DNA of 64,000 nt, from NCBI GenBank assembly GCA_963797485.1, contig CAWCPF010000001.1, positions 219,567 through 283,566 on the forward strand, read 5' to 3'. This DNA comes from an uncultured Chloroflexia bacterium (GTDB lineage: Bacteria; Chloroflexota; Anaerolineae; Anaerolineales; E44-bin32). This document shows positions 2,685 through 9,817 of the stretch, piece by piece. Both the position numbers and the translations under genes were made by a program. A model generated the notes under the pieces. It did no database searches. It saw nothing but the letters and a program-made list of their open reading frames with translations, and was not told the origin of the DNA. Positions within the stretch are counted from its first letter, which is position 1. Each line of letters opens with the position of its first letter.

Positions 2685-3238
2685 CCAAATCCTGAGACCC
2701 GATCCGGCCTGACAACTCCAATGAACGGGAGATTGCGGAAGTGTTCGTCCAGATCCAGCCCGTAACCGAAAACGAACTTGTCGGGGATCGTGAAGCCCCG
2801 GTAGTCAATCGGGACGTTCACTTCTCTGCGGGAGTCCTTGTCAAGCAGAGTGCACACTTTGAGCGTGCGTGGCTTGCGTGTCTTCAGGAGCTCCAGCACG
2901 GAGGCTATCGTGTTGCCGCTGTCTATGATGTCTTCGACCAGCAAGACATCGCGTCCTTCGATCGAGGCCGTGAGATCGAGCGTGATGCGCACGTTGCCCC
3001 CGGATTGCCGTGCGCCAGCGCCATACGAAGCCACGGCCATGAAGTCGATCGCATGCGGGATGGTGATCCGCCTCATCAAATCGGTCAAGAACATGACACC
3101 GCCGCGCAGGATGCAGATGAGGAGCAGGTCCCCGCCGGCATAGTCCTGGCTGATGGCTTGCGCCAGCGCGTCGATCCGGGCTTGCAGCTCGGCCTCCCCG
3201 ATCAGCACCTCTCCGAGATATGCCTGGTGCTCGTTCAT
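2681..3238 (-). CDS. hpt: Hypoxanthine phosphoribosyltransferase
   Basis: [22 protein letters not shown]-binding loop, FVFGYGLD...RNLPFIG. Confidence 0.95.
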
Positions 3239-3817
3239 GCTTCGCCCCGCGGGACTTCGTGATGCCGGCGACAGCGAGCTTCGTACAATTCGGCCGCCCC
3301 GACCACGACGATAGGGTCATCAAAGCGCGCCGGACGGCCGTCGATCAGCCGCTGAGTCCTGGAGGCCAGCTCACCACAAACCATGCAGATGGCATGCAGC
3401 TTGTCGACCACCTCGGCCAACGCCATCAAATCCGGCATCGGCCCAAAGGGCTCGCCTCGAAAATCGGTGTCCAGACCGGCCACAATCGCCCTCAACCCGC
3501 TGTCGGCCAGGCCCTGCACAACTTCGAGGATATCTCGATCGAAAAACTGGGCCTCGTCGATGCCTACGACGGTCGTTTCGGGTTGCAGCCTGCCAGGGAT
3601 CAGCCCGGCTCGCTCGACCACTTCGGCCTCGAATTCCGAGCCGGCGTGCGAGGTGACCTTGCCCTCATCGTAGACGCGTGTCCACGCTCGGCTTGAATAC
3701 CTGGATCGGCTGGCGCGCGATCCGCGCCCTGCGCAGCCGGCGTATCAGCTCGTCCGTCTTCCCGCTGAACATGGATCCGGTCACGACTTCGACGCCGCCG
3801 GCAGTGTGTTTTACCAA
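3235..3817 (-). CDS. tdk: Thymidine kinase (frameshift near 3672)
   Basis: GSMFSGKT Walker A in the 5' [21 protein letters not shown] and YEARCRRH in the 3' ORF. The frames join as [14 protein letters not shown] if one base is removed. SD GGAGGTG precedes TTG at 3817. Confidence 0.9.
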
Positions 3818-3839
3818 GTGGATGACACCTCCTGGGGGG

Positions 3840-3871
3840 AAAAGCAACGGGCAGGTGGGTTCACCTGCCCG
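3840..3871 (-). terminator. Hairpin, probable intrinsic terminator after rpmE
   Basis: Perfect 10-bp stem CGGGCAGGTG/CACCTGCCCG with a 4-nt loop, then TTGCTTTT on the minus strand. Confidence 0.65.
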
Positions 3872-3909: not shown

Positions 3910-4383
3910 TTACACCTGCGGTTCGGCGGCAGTGTCTGGCATTTCGAAGCCCTGACGTTTGAGCGCCCGCTTCAAATCCGCCAGGCTCTTGCGACCGAAG
4001 CCTTCGATCTCCAGCATCGCCTGATCGCCCTGCGCTAGCCGGTCCAGGGCCTGGCCCACCACTTCGATCCCGGCGCTCGCCAAAGCTGTCTCGATGCGGC
4101 TCCCCAACTCAAGCTCATGGATGGGCAGCTGCGGGGAGGTTTGGGCCGACTCGCGCGCCGTCTGTTCTTCGAGATATTCCTGGCGGGCCTGGAGCTTCTT
4201 GTAGAAGCGGTCAACCTGGCCCTCGGTGTCCACGATTCGCTGCTCGCCCGTGAAGAACGGGTGGCATTGTGAGCACACGTCGGTGTGGATCTCTTCCACC
4301 GTCGAACCGGTGGTCCACGTGTTTCCGCACACGCACGTCACCTTGGCCTCGGGAAAGTACGTTGGATGCAAATCCTGCTTCAT
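3910..4383 (-). CDS. rpmE: 50S ribosomal protein L31 (zinc-binding type) fused to an RNA polymerase alpha-CTD-like domain
   Basis: N-terminal HPTY...CVCG...[12 protein letters not shown]...[10 protein letters not shown] is L31. C-terminal [20 protein letters not shown]...[16 protein letters not shown] matches the alpha-CTD pattern. Confidence 0.9.
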
Positions 4384-4490: not shown

Positions 4491-4748
4491 TCAAGCCTTC
4501 GGAACCACGCTCACCCGCTTGTGCCCGCCGCGCATGAAGTCGTACACGACCACGCCCTCGGCGGTGGCGAACAGGGAGTCATCCCCTGCCCGCTTCACAT
4601 TCAAACCCGGATGGATTCGCGTGCCGCGCTGCCGCACCAGGATGTGGCCCGACAGAACCTGTTCGCCGGCGTACTTCTTAACGCCCAGGCGCTGTGATTG
4701 GCTGTCACGCCCATTGCGGCTGGAACCGCCGCCTTTTTTGTGTGCCAC
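4491..4748 (-). CDS. rpmA: 50S ribosomal protein L27
   Basis: [16 protein letters not shown]...RLGVK...ILVRQRGT. Confidence 0.97.
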
Positions 4749-4765: not shown

Positions 4766-5320
4766 CTACTCGGACTTCTTGGTCTTACGCCCAGCGGGTG
4801 CCTTCTTGCCGGCTGGCACGCGCTTGCCGGTGGCCGGCTTGGCGGCCGGTTTCTTTGGCGCCCCCGCCCTGGTGGTGCGCGTCTTGGGTGCCTCTCCAGC
4901 CGGCGGTCGCTTCCTGCGGCTGGCGGCCGGGGCGGCATCAACCGCCGCTTCGGGTCCTGCCGCAACGACTGGCTCGGCTTTGGGAGCCGCCTTTTTCACC
5001 TGGCCCGCACCCAGGATATCGTCAATCATCACCCGGGTGTAACGCTGACGGTGGCCCGCTCGGCGACGATAGCGGAGCTTCGCCCGGTACTTGAAGATAC
5101 GAACCTTGGGCCCCTTGATTTCCTCAACCACGTGGCCCAGGACCTGCGCCCCCTTGAGATGGGGCTTTCCAACCTGCGGGCTGCCATTATCGGCCAGGAG
5201 CAGCACCTTGTCGAAGGCCACGGCTTCCCCTGCAGCCAACTGCAAGCGGTCGACTTCAATGACTTCACCCGAGCGGGCGATGTACTGTTTCCCCCCGCTC
5301 TCCACGATGGCGTACGGCAT
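4766..5320 (-). CDS. rplU: 50S ribosomal protein L21 with a long Ala/Lys/Pro-rich C-terminal tail
   Basis: [13 protein letters not shown]...KVRIFKY...[19 protein letters not shown] before ATG at 5320. Confidence 0.95.
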
Positions 5321-5484: not shown

Positions 5485-8400
5485 TCAGTCAGCGGCCACA
5501 GCCTCAAACTCGGTGAGAGGTGACTCCTCGGTCAGGCGTTCCCCGTCCAGCCGTTCATCATGCAGCACTACTTCCTCGCCCGGGAAACCAGTCCCGGCCG
5601 GGATGAGCTTGCCGATGATGACGTTCTCCTTCAGGCCGCGAAGGAAATCGACCTTGCCCTCGATAGCCGCACCCGCCAGGACCTTGATGGTGTGCTGGAA
5701 GGATGAGGCTGACAGGAAGGATTCGGTGTTCAGGGACGCCTTGGTCACGCCCAGCAGCACCTGGGCCGCCCACGCCGGCTGCTTGCCCTCTTCGCGCATC
5801 TGGTCGTTCATCCGCTGCAGGAACAGCCGGTCGACCAGGTCACCAGGCAGGAGATCGGTGTGCCCTGGGTGAGTGATCTGGACCTTGGACAGCATCTTGC
5901 GAATGATCACCTCGAAGTGTTTGTCGTTGATGTTCTGGCCCTGCGACCGGTAGACTTTTTGAACTTCGGTGAGCAGGTAGAGCTGCGCCGCGTCGCTGCC
6001 CAGGATGCGCAGAATGCGGTGCGGATTGAGCGAACCCTCGGTCAGCTGGTGACCGGCTTCCACCTTCTCCCCGTCCTTGACCAACAAACGGGCGCTGGCT
6101 GGGATGTCGTACTCGACATCATCGATCTGATCATATGAGACGACCACGGTGCGCTCGTCAATCCGCAGCCTGCCCCCATGGCTGGCACGAATCTCGCTGT
6201 CGCCTCGGCTGGCGATCAGCTCACCTTCGGTGATCTCCGTGCCGTCTTCGACTTTGAGCGACCAGTTGCCGGGAACGTTGTACTCATCCTTGATCAACTG
6301 GCTGTTGACGACACGCACGATGCGCGGCCCCTCGGGCACGTCAGGGCGATGGACGTGCACGGTTCCGGCGATCTCACACAGGATGGCCTCGCCGCGCGGT
6401 TTCTTCCGCGCCTCGAAAAGCTCTTCAACTCGGGGAAGGCCGGTGGTGATGTCACCGCCGGCCGCCACACCGCCGGTGTGGAACGTCCGCAGCGTGAGCT
6501 GGGTCCCGGGTTCTCCGATTGACTGGGCTGCCACGATGCCGACCGCGGCGCCGAGCTCGACGATCCGGCCCCGGCCAAGATCCATCCCGTAGCAGTTCAT
6601 GCACATGCCGAATTGCAGCTCACACGTGAGCGGGGATCGGACATACACCTCGGGTACACCCGAGCGATCGAGGCGCTTGGCCAGCTCGAAATCGACCAGT
6701 TCGTTCTTCTTGGCCAGTACCTCACCCGTCTCCGGATGCACCGCCCGCTTAGCCATGATACGCCCGTTCAGCCGCGACGTGAAATCCTGTCCGGCCACAT
6801 CGTCGCTGCGGCGGACCCAAATTCCAGCTTCGGTCCCACAGTCTTCAGAGTTGATGATGACGTCCTGAGCCACATCGACGAGCCGCCGCGTCAGATAGCC
6901 TGCGTCGGCTGTACGAAGGGCTGTGTCGGTCAAGCCCTTTCGGGCCCCGTGGGTTGAAATGAAGTACTCCAGCGTGCTCAGGCCGTCACGGAAGCTGGAG
7001 CGGATTGGGAGCGGGATGATGCGCCCGGCGGGATCGGCCATCAGACCGCGCATGCCGGCCAGCTGCGAGATCGGGCCGAAGCCGCCTTTGGTGGCGCCCG
7101 AGATCGCCATCGTACTCAGGTTGCCCGACGGGTCCATCGCGTCGCGGACGGCGGAAGCCACCTGTGTGGTGGTTGCCTGCCACAGCTCGATGACCCGCTC
7201 GGTCTGTTCCTGCTCGGTCAGCAGGCCGCGCTCATAGTCCCGACGGACTTCGTCAGCTTCTTCGAGAGTCTTGGCGATGATCTCGGACTTTGCCGCGGGG
7301 ACTGAAATATCCGAGACCACGATCGTCGTTCCCGATCGCGTGGCGTATTGGAACCCGATGTCCTTGATGGCATCCACTACGGCCGGTGTGCCGTCTTCAC
7401 GCAGGAGTTGATAGACCTCGCCGACCAGGTCCTGGATCGAGCCTTTGTCGAGGACCCGGTTCACAAAGCGCATCTCATCCGGCAGGATGTGGTTAAACAG
7501 GACCCGGCCGACGGTGGTTTCTATCACACCGGGCTGGCCGGCCTCGAGCCGTTCGTGGTTCTCGTCGTACCAGGTCACCGTGCTCAGCTTGATCGGTGTG
7601 TGGACGCGCACCTGGCCCAGCTGATAAGCCATCTCGACTTCATCCATGGTCGAGAAAGCCCGTCCAGCCCCCGGCTGCTTGGAGCCGTCCACATCCATGG
7701 TCAGGTAGTAAACGCCCAGCACCATGTCCTTGGTCGGCCCGACAATCGGTTCCCCATCGGCCGGCTTGAGCAGGTTGCGCGATGAAAGCATCAGCTCGCG
7801 AGCCTCGGTTACGGCCCGCTCCGACAGCGGCAGGTGCACCGACATCTGATCGCCGTCAAAGTCTGCGTTGAACGCCGAACACACCAGTGGGTGAAGCTGA
7901 ATGGCCTTGCCTTCGACCAGGATGGGCTCAAACGCCTGAATGCCCAGACGGTGCAGCGTCGGTGCCCGGTTGAGCAACACCGGCCGGTCTTTGATGACCT
8001 CTTCCAAGACTTCCCACACCTCGGGCCGCTCGCGTTCAATGATGCGTTTGGCACCCTTCACGTTGGCGGCATAGTTGTAGGCCACCAGCTTGGAGATGAC
8101 GAAGGGCCGGTAAAGCTCGAGGGCCATGGTCTTCGGCAGGCCGCACTGAAAAAGCTTCAGGTGCGGGCCAATGACGATAACCGAGCGCCCCGAATAGTCC
8201 ACGCGCTTGCCGAGCAAGTTGCGGCGGAAGCGCCCCTTCTTTCCCTTGAGCATGTCACTCAGGGATTTGAGTTCTCGGCGGCCGCGGCGTGAAAGGGCTT
8301 TGCCGCGCTGGGCATTGTCGATCAGCGAATCAACCGCTTCCTGGAGCATGCGCTTCTCATTGCGGACAATCACATCCGGGGCGCCCAACTCCACCAGCCG

Positions 8401-9741
8401 CTTGAGCCGGTTGTTGCGGTTGATGACCCGGCGGTAGAGGTCGTTCAGATCGGAGGTGGCAAACCGCCCGCCATCCAGCTGCACCATGGGACGCAGATCC
8501 GGCGGGATCACCGGCAAGACCGTCAACACCATCCATTCGGGGCGATTGTTCGATCGCCGGAAAGCCTCAACCACCTTGAGCCGCTTGGTGGCCTTCTTCT
8601 TGCGCTGCTTGCTGCGGGTTGTGCGAACCTCTTCCCACAGCTCGTCGGCCATCTTGTCCAGGTCAAGCTGCTGCAGGATTTCATAAAAGGCCTCGGCGCC
8701 CATATCGGCGCGAAATACCTGTCCCCACTTGGCTTTCAGTTCTCGGTATCGGCCTTCGCCGAGGAACATCATTTGTTCGATCGACGACAACTCGTCGCGA
8801 TCCTTGATCATGTCCTCTCGGGCGCTCACACCTTCTTCGTCGATCAACTCCCGCAGCTCGACCACCTTTTGATCGGCCTCAGCTTTGACGGTTTCGATGT
8901 GGGTGTCCATCTCGGCCAGAGCCGCCTCGTGGCGCTCCTTGAGGCTGGCTTCGATTTCTTCCAGGCGTATTTTGACCGCCTTCTCGACACGCGCGACATG
9001 TTCGTTGCCGATCGTCTCGCCCTTTTCGGCAATCAGAGTGTCGGTCGCCTTGAATTTGATGCCCGCTCGAATAGCCGAACCCTGCTTCTCGCGCAGGCTG
9101 GCCTCCAGGCGCTGGCCCTCCTGGATGACGGGTTCGATTTCCGCCGCCACCTGCTCGGCATAGGAGCCTTTGAGTTCGCGCTTTTTGGTCTCGTGTTCTT
9201 CGATGCGCTTCTTGCGCTGGGACTTGGTCTTGGCGATGCGTTCGTTGAGGGCCTCGGCCTCTTCCTTCTCGACGCGGTTGATTTCTTCTTCGAGGCGCTT
9301 CAGAGCCTTCTTGCGGGCATCCTCGTCAACGTAAGTGACGACATACTGAGCGAAGTACAGCACACGGTCCAGATTGCGTCGTGAGACATCCAGAAGCAAA
9401 CCCAGATACGACGGTACCCGGCGTGTGTACCATACGTGAGCCACGGGCGCAGCCAACCCAATATGGCCCATGCGCTCGCGCCGCACCGACGAACGCGTCA
9501 CCTCCACCCCGCACTTTTCGCAGGTGATCCCCTTAAAACGAATATTCTTATATTTGCCGCAGTAGCACTGCCAGTCCTTGGTCGGGCCAAAGATGGCCTC
9601 ATCGAACAGGCCGTCCTTTTCGGGCCTCAACCTGCGGTAGTTGATCGTCTCCGGCTTAAGGACCTCACCGTGCGACCAACTCAATATGGTTTCGGGGGAC
9701 GCCAGGCTGATACGCAGCGCTCGAAAACCCTTGGATTCCAC
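5485..9741 (-). CDS. rpoC: RNA polymerase beta' subunit
   Basis: KPETINYR, Zn-binding CYCGKYK...[13 protein letters not shown] catalytic motif, [33 protein letters not shown]. Likely GTG start at 9741 after GGAGG. Confidence 0.98.
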
Positions 9742-9817
9742 CCAGACCTCCACTCAAGAAAGGCGCGAATTTCGCCGGTCAAGCCATTGGGTCGAACAAA
9801 CGTGCTAATTTACAGAC

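Follow-up and report, generated by a model that had tools for sequence, protein, structure and literature searches.

An RNA polymerase alpha-CTD-family domain fused to ribosomal protein bL31 in Anaerolineales

The rpmE gene analysed here raises the question of what a domain related to the C-terminal tail of RNA polymerase's alpha subunit is doing on bL31, a protein that bridges the two ribosomal subunits. The gene lies in the window, which is the whole 64,000-nucleotide stretch of DNA that was analysed, and its parts and neighbours are listed in Table 1.

Table 1. Features of the fused rpmE gene and of its upstream neighbours, in window coordinates
Feature	Position	Strand	Basis
rpmE, 157-aa bL31-alpha-CTD fusion	3910..4383	-	translation, Pfam
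bL31 core, residues 1-64, Zn-type	4192..4383	-	PF01197, PRK00019, dN/dS
Charged linker, 23 residues (61-83), after the GQVDRF motif; presumably helical	4135..4203	-	length count
Helix-hairpin-helix domain of the alpha-CTD family (residues 84-148); has the 3-residue insertion of Anaerolineae, and its last helix is basic	3940..4134	-	Pfam, PDB, hhalign
rpmA (bL27), conserved upstream neighbour	4491..4748	-	Pfam; 78/80 loci
rplU (bL21), Ala/Lys/Pro low-complexity tail, no alpha-CTD copy; conserved upstream neighbour	4766..5317	-	77/80 loci
rpoC (beta'), adjoining here, not a conserved neighbour; no alpha-CTD copy	5485..9753	-	Pfam, profile search

The fused gene, its spread and its neighbours

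As described in the earlier note, the gene is one uninterrupted ORF with no internal stops, and the motifs quoted there were found in it. The complete Zn-type L31 claimed for its N-terminal part was recovered by Pfam as Ribosomal_L31 over residues 1-64 with an E-value of 1.3e-27 (PF01197, 96 bits against a cut-off of 27), and the NCBIfam model PRK00019 gave 97 bits against a cut-off of 70. The zinc ligands of the CxC...CxxC core are C17, C19, C37 and C40, which are invariant across 40 aligned homologues. Judged by profile cut-offs and cysteines, the fused protein is a member of the Zn-type bL31 family. With canonical Zn-type bL31 (RpmE; PF01197, TIGR00105, PRK00019) it shares this core, the CHPFFTG and GQVDRF motifs, the single copy and the position of the gene after rplU-rpmA, but it adds a fixed linker of 23 aa and a domain of 65 aa, giving 157 aa where the family models have 65-80 positions. 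The fused bL31 was the only PF01197 match in this genome, which is 81% complete, and no second bL31 of type B was found in it. We infer from the single intact copy and the operon context that the fused bL31 is incorporated into ribosomes, at bridge B1b. In family f9 and in genome G670, some fused bL31s (L020, L021, L153) have lost the zinc cysteines and kept the alpha-CTD domain and the linker. Unfused Anaerolineae bL31s (L025-L044; P0149-P0231) often carry long charged or Ala/Pro/Glu-rich tails of up to about 300 aa.

Neither a misassembly nor the loss of a stop codon accounts for the fusion, as both domains lie in one ORF in 80/80 loci from a part of the genome_contigs collection. Moreover, all of the 120 best listed homologues (119 besides the query) carry PF01197 and PF03118, and three same-order matches that had been flagged with an internal stop proved to be intact fusions on re-reading.

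The phyletic survey bore out the suggestion that the fusion is lineage-specific. In a sample of 401 genomes of the phylum, all 36 genomes of the same order matched from residue 1 to at least residue 150, as did 3 of 11 genomes belonging to the remaining orders of the class, over the full length. A separate sample of the class gave full-length matches in at least 37 of 252 Anaerolineae genomes of other orders, spread over 11 families. Among 353 genomes outside the class (five of them unpublished and entering no other count), no match was better than E 7e-29, and none of theirs among the matches listed (150 of the 654 in the whole sample) ran through both domains free of stops. Matches were obtained in 28 of 30 near relatives, all 28 as fusions; the two non-matching genomes are 56% and 87% complete. 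Run with a full-length alignment, the genome_contigs scan went through 6 of the 64 parts, and the best 80 of its 594 loci were retained. All of these 80 are fused, and their record titles name Anaerolineae-level taxa, Chloroflexota or "uncultured Chloroflexia"; the genera named as carriers are Anaerolinea, Leptolinea, Longilinea and Pelolinea. Atlas clusters with the bL31-alpha-CTD architecture are likewise mostly from Chloroflexota where the phylum is known. The fusion is thus order-wide among the genomes sampled. The architecture is visible in precomputed Pfam labels. We found no description of it in open-access full text, subscription journals and supplements being outside the scope of that search, and the bL31 passages of one review mention no such fusion.

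The earlier note had placed the operon directly downstream of rpoC. The gene order rpoC-rplU-rpmA-rpmE is real in the window, but the C-terminus of rpoC lies within 3 kb of the fused rpmE in only 4 of 80 loci; the adjacency is incidental and was rejected as evidence. The genes that recur within 3 kb of the fused rpmE include, besides rplU (77/80) and rpmA (78/80), tdk (71/80), hpt (66/80) and a CCA-like gene (63/80). In the window, the tdk-like gene past rpmE (3235-3847, minus strand) is split over two frames, probably by an assembly indel.

Residues, surface and linker of the tail domain

Pfam assigned residues 80-142 to RNA_pol_A_CTD (PF03118) with an E-value of 5.8e-9 and a score of 36 bits, the gathering score being 23.8, in line with the domain proposed from the letters. 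When the C-terminal 75 aa were compared with PDB sequences, RpoA chains came first (best 1doq, E 2.8e-5), and hhalign matched a profile of 42 bL31-domain sequences to the E. coli alpha-CTD over 60 columns (probability 96.7%, E 4.4e-10). NCBIfam recognized the N-terminal part as L31 and additionally gave partial matches to eight RpoA models. An Atlas model of a relative, P0026 (pLDDT 0.77, pTM 0.42), matched bL31 clusters only, the best of them labelled PF03118 where aligned. By these profile matches, the tail of the fused bL31 belongs to the PF03118 domain family.

The residue pattern read in the earlier note, with the R and GxKS positions kept and two Asn positions changed, was confirmed: R96, G130, K132 and S133 correspond to R265, G296, K298 and S299, T99 stands in place of N268, and G128 in place of N294. 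The same pattern is found in the 42 copies of the main clade, which are related and not independent rows, 29 of them coming from this genome's order (the genome itself and its relatives). R265 is kept in 40/42 copies, G296 in 42/42, K298 in 37/42 and S299 in 30/42, whereas N268, K271/R272 and R293 are lost and N294 is replaced by G in 41/42; in 36 RpoAs of the class, the positions of N268, K271/R272, R293 and N294 are invariant or K/R. In the 80 genome_contigs loci, R265 is present in 79, G294 in 79, G296 in 80 and K298 in 72, and a basic residue occupies positions 304 (K/R), 305 (K/R) and 308 (R/K) in all 80.

The tail fails two tests of a functional RpoA tail. The full DNA determinant (R265, N268, N294, G296, K298, S299) is incomplete, N268 occurring in at most 8/80 loci and N294 in 1/80, against 36/36 each in the class RpoAs; and the domain is attached to bL31 instead of an alpha-NTD, a separate intact rpoA being present. 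We take N294 and K298 to have roles in DNA binding by the alpha-CTD, and the G-x-G hairpin made by N294G is presumably typical of sequence-independent helix-hairpin-helix domains. Roles of N268 and S299 in DNA binding by the alpha-CTD are described in PMC1874639.

The identity of the bL31 domain to the RpoA tail of the same genome is 40%, and the distribution of charge differs. The net charge of positions 301-310 is +3.3+-0.8 in the 42 main-clade bL31 copies, compared with -0.5 in 36 RpoA, -0.6 in 18 NusA, -0.6 in 8 bS16/bL21 and -0.6 in 5 other bL31 copies, and that of positions 263-273 falls from +3.0 in RpoA to +0.8 in the main clade. The earlier description of the domain as an "alpha-CTD mimic" therefore holds only in part. 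The bL31 domain shares with the RpoA alpha-CTD the Pfam match, R265, G296, K298, mostly S299 and an insertion seen in Anaerolineae (see below), but it is not carried by an alpha-NTD, it has lost N268, K271/R272, R293 and N294, and it has gained a conserved basic helix, so that it is not a plain mimic.

The linker between GQVDRF and the domain is exactly 23 aa long in 39 of the 42 main-clade copies (24, 25 and 25 in the others) and in 80/80 genome_contigs loci. It measures 28-37 aa in five bL31 copies of other origin, and the tails ahead of the bS16, bL21 and DUF4013 copies described below are variable and of low complexity. Domain dN/dS is 0.03-0.12 in six same-genus pairs and 0.17 when pooled over 36 pairs from nine genomes, and about 0.06 for the bL31 core, these values being rough as dS is near saturation. 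The fused tail domain is under purifying selection.

Origin of the domain and its other hosts

The genome holds exactly three alpha-CTD-family domains, on RpoA, NusA and bL31. RpoA is intact with its own domain, which rules out that the tail of rpoA was split off or moved elsewhere. In 44/44 genomes searched, PF03118 was matched above the cut-off. A 3-residue insertion before the hairpin is present in 36/36 Anaerolineae RpoA tails and missing in E. coli and in five copies of RpoA belonging to four other genomes of Chloroflexota. The same insertion is common to all 47 bL31, 18 NusA, 6 beta' and 8 bS16/bL21 copies, which suggests that the module was derived from the Anaerolineae's own rpoA.

The trees give no support to a single origin of all bL31 fusions. 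In a tree of the RpoA N-terminal domain, built from this one gene with 42 rows, the fused bL31s are spread over three positions: a clade of 16 genomes including this one (14 of them fused), a pair from family f117, and f102/f124/f129. A domain tree of 80 rows and 65 columns, which omits 24 bL31 and 10 RpoA rows, unites 18 main-clade bL31 copies at 99/98, and its starred branches force at least three changes. A tree of 73 rows with more hosts, whose bootstrap had not settled, forces at least four changes and does not resolve the main clade. Thus, bL31 acquired or exchanged the domain on more than one occasion, though how often is uncertain with 65 columns. The f117 bL31 copies nest among the NusA copies of their own genomes in the domain tree, with 65-82% identity, and six other f117 genomes have NusA-sized copies and no bL31-sized copy, which together suggest a recent copy or gene conversion. 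In the f117 pair (L016/L017; G561, G507), a divergent nusA adjoins rplU-rpmA-rpmE.

NusA and beta' are the commonest other hosts. In 33 genomes (16 + 17), NusA carries one or two alpha-CTD-like domains after KH2 (L003:460-2127, L085-L102, L263-L279). All 17 NusA-sized matches that were checked are NusA, none of them from a genome with a bL31 copy. NusA was retrieved in 17 bL31-fused genomes, this one included, and has a copy in 14; of the others, two f5 genomes seem by eye to hold a degenerate remnant and G523 holds none. These domains can be likened by position to AR1 and AR2 of E. coli NusA, which are also small helical domains after KH2, but the Anaerolineae copies carry the class RpoA insertion and are acidic on average (net charge -4.1). 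The nusA gene of this genome (G000:C3:858647-860138) is split over two frames, probably by an assembly indel; it is intact in two same-genus genomes and split at another place in a third. A conserved basic motif, (V/E)(F/Y)DE..G.V...R(R/K), stands at the C-terminal end of NusA throughout the class.

Six copies, from several Anaerolineae families, sit in the beta' subunit as internal insertions shortly after the NADFDGD catalytic region (L117-L121 in G433, G626, G460, G424 and G557; L123 in G429, at a contig end), and about ten further candidate matches sit in ORFs of 1,270-1,580 aa. PRK14906, whose label we take to read "beta'/alpha domain fusion", is matched weakly by the bL31 domain at positions 1317-1369 (E 0.042), near the C-terminus of the model, unlike the internal beta' insertions of Anaerolineae. 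RpoA itself carries a tandem double Anaerolineae-type alpha-CTD in P0241 and P0212.

A further 55 genomes of the class were searched with a mixed profile, and 20 non-RpoA matches were read. The hosts were bS16 in six genomes (L240, L243, L245, L246, L247, L250) and bL21 in two (L241, L244), all without a bL31 copy. Six of the 55 genomes have bS16/bL21 copies and four have bL31 copies, with no genome in both sets, the numbers being too small for significance. In four DUF4013 proteins with hydrophobic, membrane-like stretches (L248, L249, L251, L258), the module stands at the end, in two of them without the class insertion, and in one protein (L242) it follows an HTH_3 domain. Four further matches, to multi-repeat or sigma70-region-4 proteins, lack the insertion; the last three are two small proteins that stand alone and a weak match that reads as DNA ligase. 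The multi-repeat proteins (L252-L255; P0175, P0185) lack the class insertion; in some, the repeats are followed by sigma70 region 4 and HARE-HTH, and P0185 has 11 repeats. An uncharacterised protein of 255 aa (L122) starts with the module, and its copy groups with the bL31 copy of the same genome. R265 and the G-x-G hairpin are kept in most rows of every host group.

The fusion resembles in kind other ribosomal proteins with an appended C-terminal domain, namely the long bL21 families (NCBIfam PRK12278, 216-223 positions) and a bL31-DUF4332 fusion (P0145, a metagenomic cluster of 2, found once among 29 long bL31s scanned), but here the appended domain is alpha-CTD-derived, and host and lineage differ. 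The PRK12278 tail is presumably an HhH-like COG3743 domain, and the DUF4332 part of P0145 matches PRK12278.1-1 weakly at positions 152-214 (E 0.001). As DUF4332 is a different domain of the helix-hairpin-helix type, the fold class, and not alpha-CTD identity, may be what matters. No published function for long bL21 (PRK12278) or bL31-DUF4332 was found in open-access full text.

Possible roles of the appended domain

Of the uses listed by the earlier note, nucleic-acid binding appears to be the likeliest. According to PMC10931766 and PMC7363858, the N-terminal domain of bL31 binds uL5 and its C-terminal part binds the 30S head (uS13). The linker would extend the C-terminal helix of bL31 and set the domain at a given distance from the 30S head, and such a fixed-length extension suggests that the domain is held at a set place by the head. 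There, the kept hairpin of R265, G-x-G296 and K298, together with the new stripe of K304, R/K305 and R/K308, would bind a phosphate backbone, most likely that of the 16S rRNA of the head or of nearby mRNA, and could steady bridge B1b or the mRNA. The loss of N268, N294 and K271/R272 would take away the reading of promoter UP elements known from RpoA. The fixed spacing, the generic hairpin and the new basic stripe are best fitted by such backbone binding. Our preferred reading falls a little short of an even chance: the remodelled alpha tail domain on its fixed 23-residue linker may serve, at the 30S head, as a helix-hairpin-helix appendage that grips RNA whatever its sequence. The copies of other origin (f117, f102, f124, f129) and those on bS16 and bL21 have no basic helix, and the fusions cannot all be explained by this mechanism. 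An acidic protein, for example the acidic copy of NusA, would be an equally possible partner of the basic stripe.

A wider scheme, which we consider unlikely, is that Anaerolineae repeatedly passed copies of the alpha tail to ribosomal proteins (to bL31 more than once, to bS16 and to bL21), to NusA and to the inside of beta' as a system of handles tying ribosomes to the transcription complex, in which the bL31 arm of Anaerolineales would be a hard-wired coupling contact. Taken for bL31 itself, a link of the tail to transcription is possible. The domain on the ribosome might bind RNAP or NusA, through the NTD of the latter or its acidic alpha-CTD-like copy at the AR1/AR2 place, and so tether the leading ribosome to the elongation complex. 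PMC8940904 and PMC6614797 describe binding of E. coli alpha-CTDs to the NusA-NTD and AR2, and bioRxiv 2020.03.01.971028 places RNAP at the 30S head near uS3/uS10 in E. coli expressomes. Such tethering would also suit the three copies of this genome on RpoA, NusA and bL31, the predominance of NusA (33 genomes) and beta' (6) among the other hosts, and the NusA copy in 14 of 17 fused genomes. However, that co-occurrence follows phylogeny and is not independent evidence, at least 19 genomes have the domain on NusA and not on bL31, several surface residues invariant in RpoA are lost, and the proximity of rpoC is not conserved (4/80). That bS16, bL21, HTH and DUF4013 proteins bear the same module also weakens the case for a role in coupling that depends on geometry, as far as the module at large is concerned. 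A complex prediction that paired NusA 1-502 (G643, alignment of 16 rows) with the bL31 domain (alignment of 42 rows) scored 0.00 in both runs, the mark being 0.32, and is evidence neither way. We regard this device as unlikely.

It is similarly unlikely that the module is a position-independent tag, placed on many abundant proteins for non-specific DNA or nucleoid binding or for one shared partner, with host and site mattering little. The range of hosts (bL31, bS16 in six genomes, bL21 in two, NusA, beta', tandem RpoA in P0241, the HTH protein and four DUF4013 proteins), the R265 and G-x-G hairpin common to most rows of the host groups and the mutual absence of bS16/bL21 and bL31 copies, in numbers too few for significance, are what such a tag would lead one to expect, but in the main clade the unvarying linker of 23 residues and a basic helix specific to bL31 indicate a fixed position and a specialised surface. 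These readings need not exclude each other, and the role need not be the same in copies that arose separately.

A role off the ribosome, in which free bL31, released for example in zinc shortage, would serve as an alpha-CTD decoy or regulate the operon that encodes it, is very unlikely. According to PMC10931766, bL31 undergoes loose exchange and, in E. coli, acts as an autogenous repressor, but a type B bL31 was not found in the 81%-complete genome, the UP-element residues are lost, and a free decoy would have no need of a fixed linker. That the domain is a neutral passenger, a mobile module that landed on the exposed C-terminus of bL31 and was kept only because it folds harmlessly, is the least likely reading, for although the module is mobile and the f117 bL31 copy is so close to the NusA copies of its genome, dN/dS is well below 1, the surface lysines are nearly invariant, and no loss was seen in 36/36 same-order genomes or 28/28 matched relatives.

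To return to the RNA-gripping appendage and its alternatives, core ribosomal proteins rarely gain folded domains, and here a whole order appears with a domain of the transcription machinery on a protein that bridges the subunits, its spacing fixed and its surface evolved anew; other families put the module on two other ribosomal proteins. If the bL31 domain binds rRNA, it would be a clear case of ribosome accretion through a recycled polymerase domain; if it binds NusA or RNAP, it would open a new route to transcription-translation coupling. As named genera carry the fusion, a ribosome structure or the binding of the 65-residue domain makes the idea testable.
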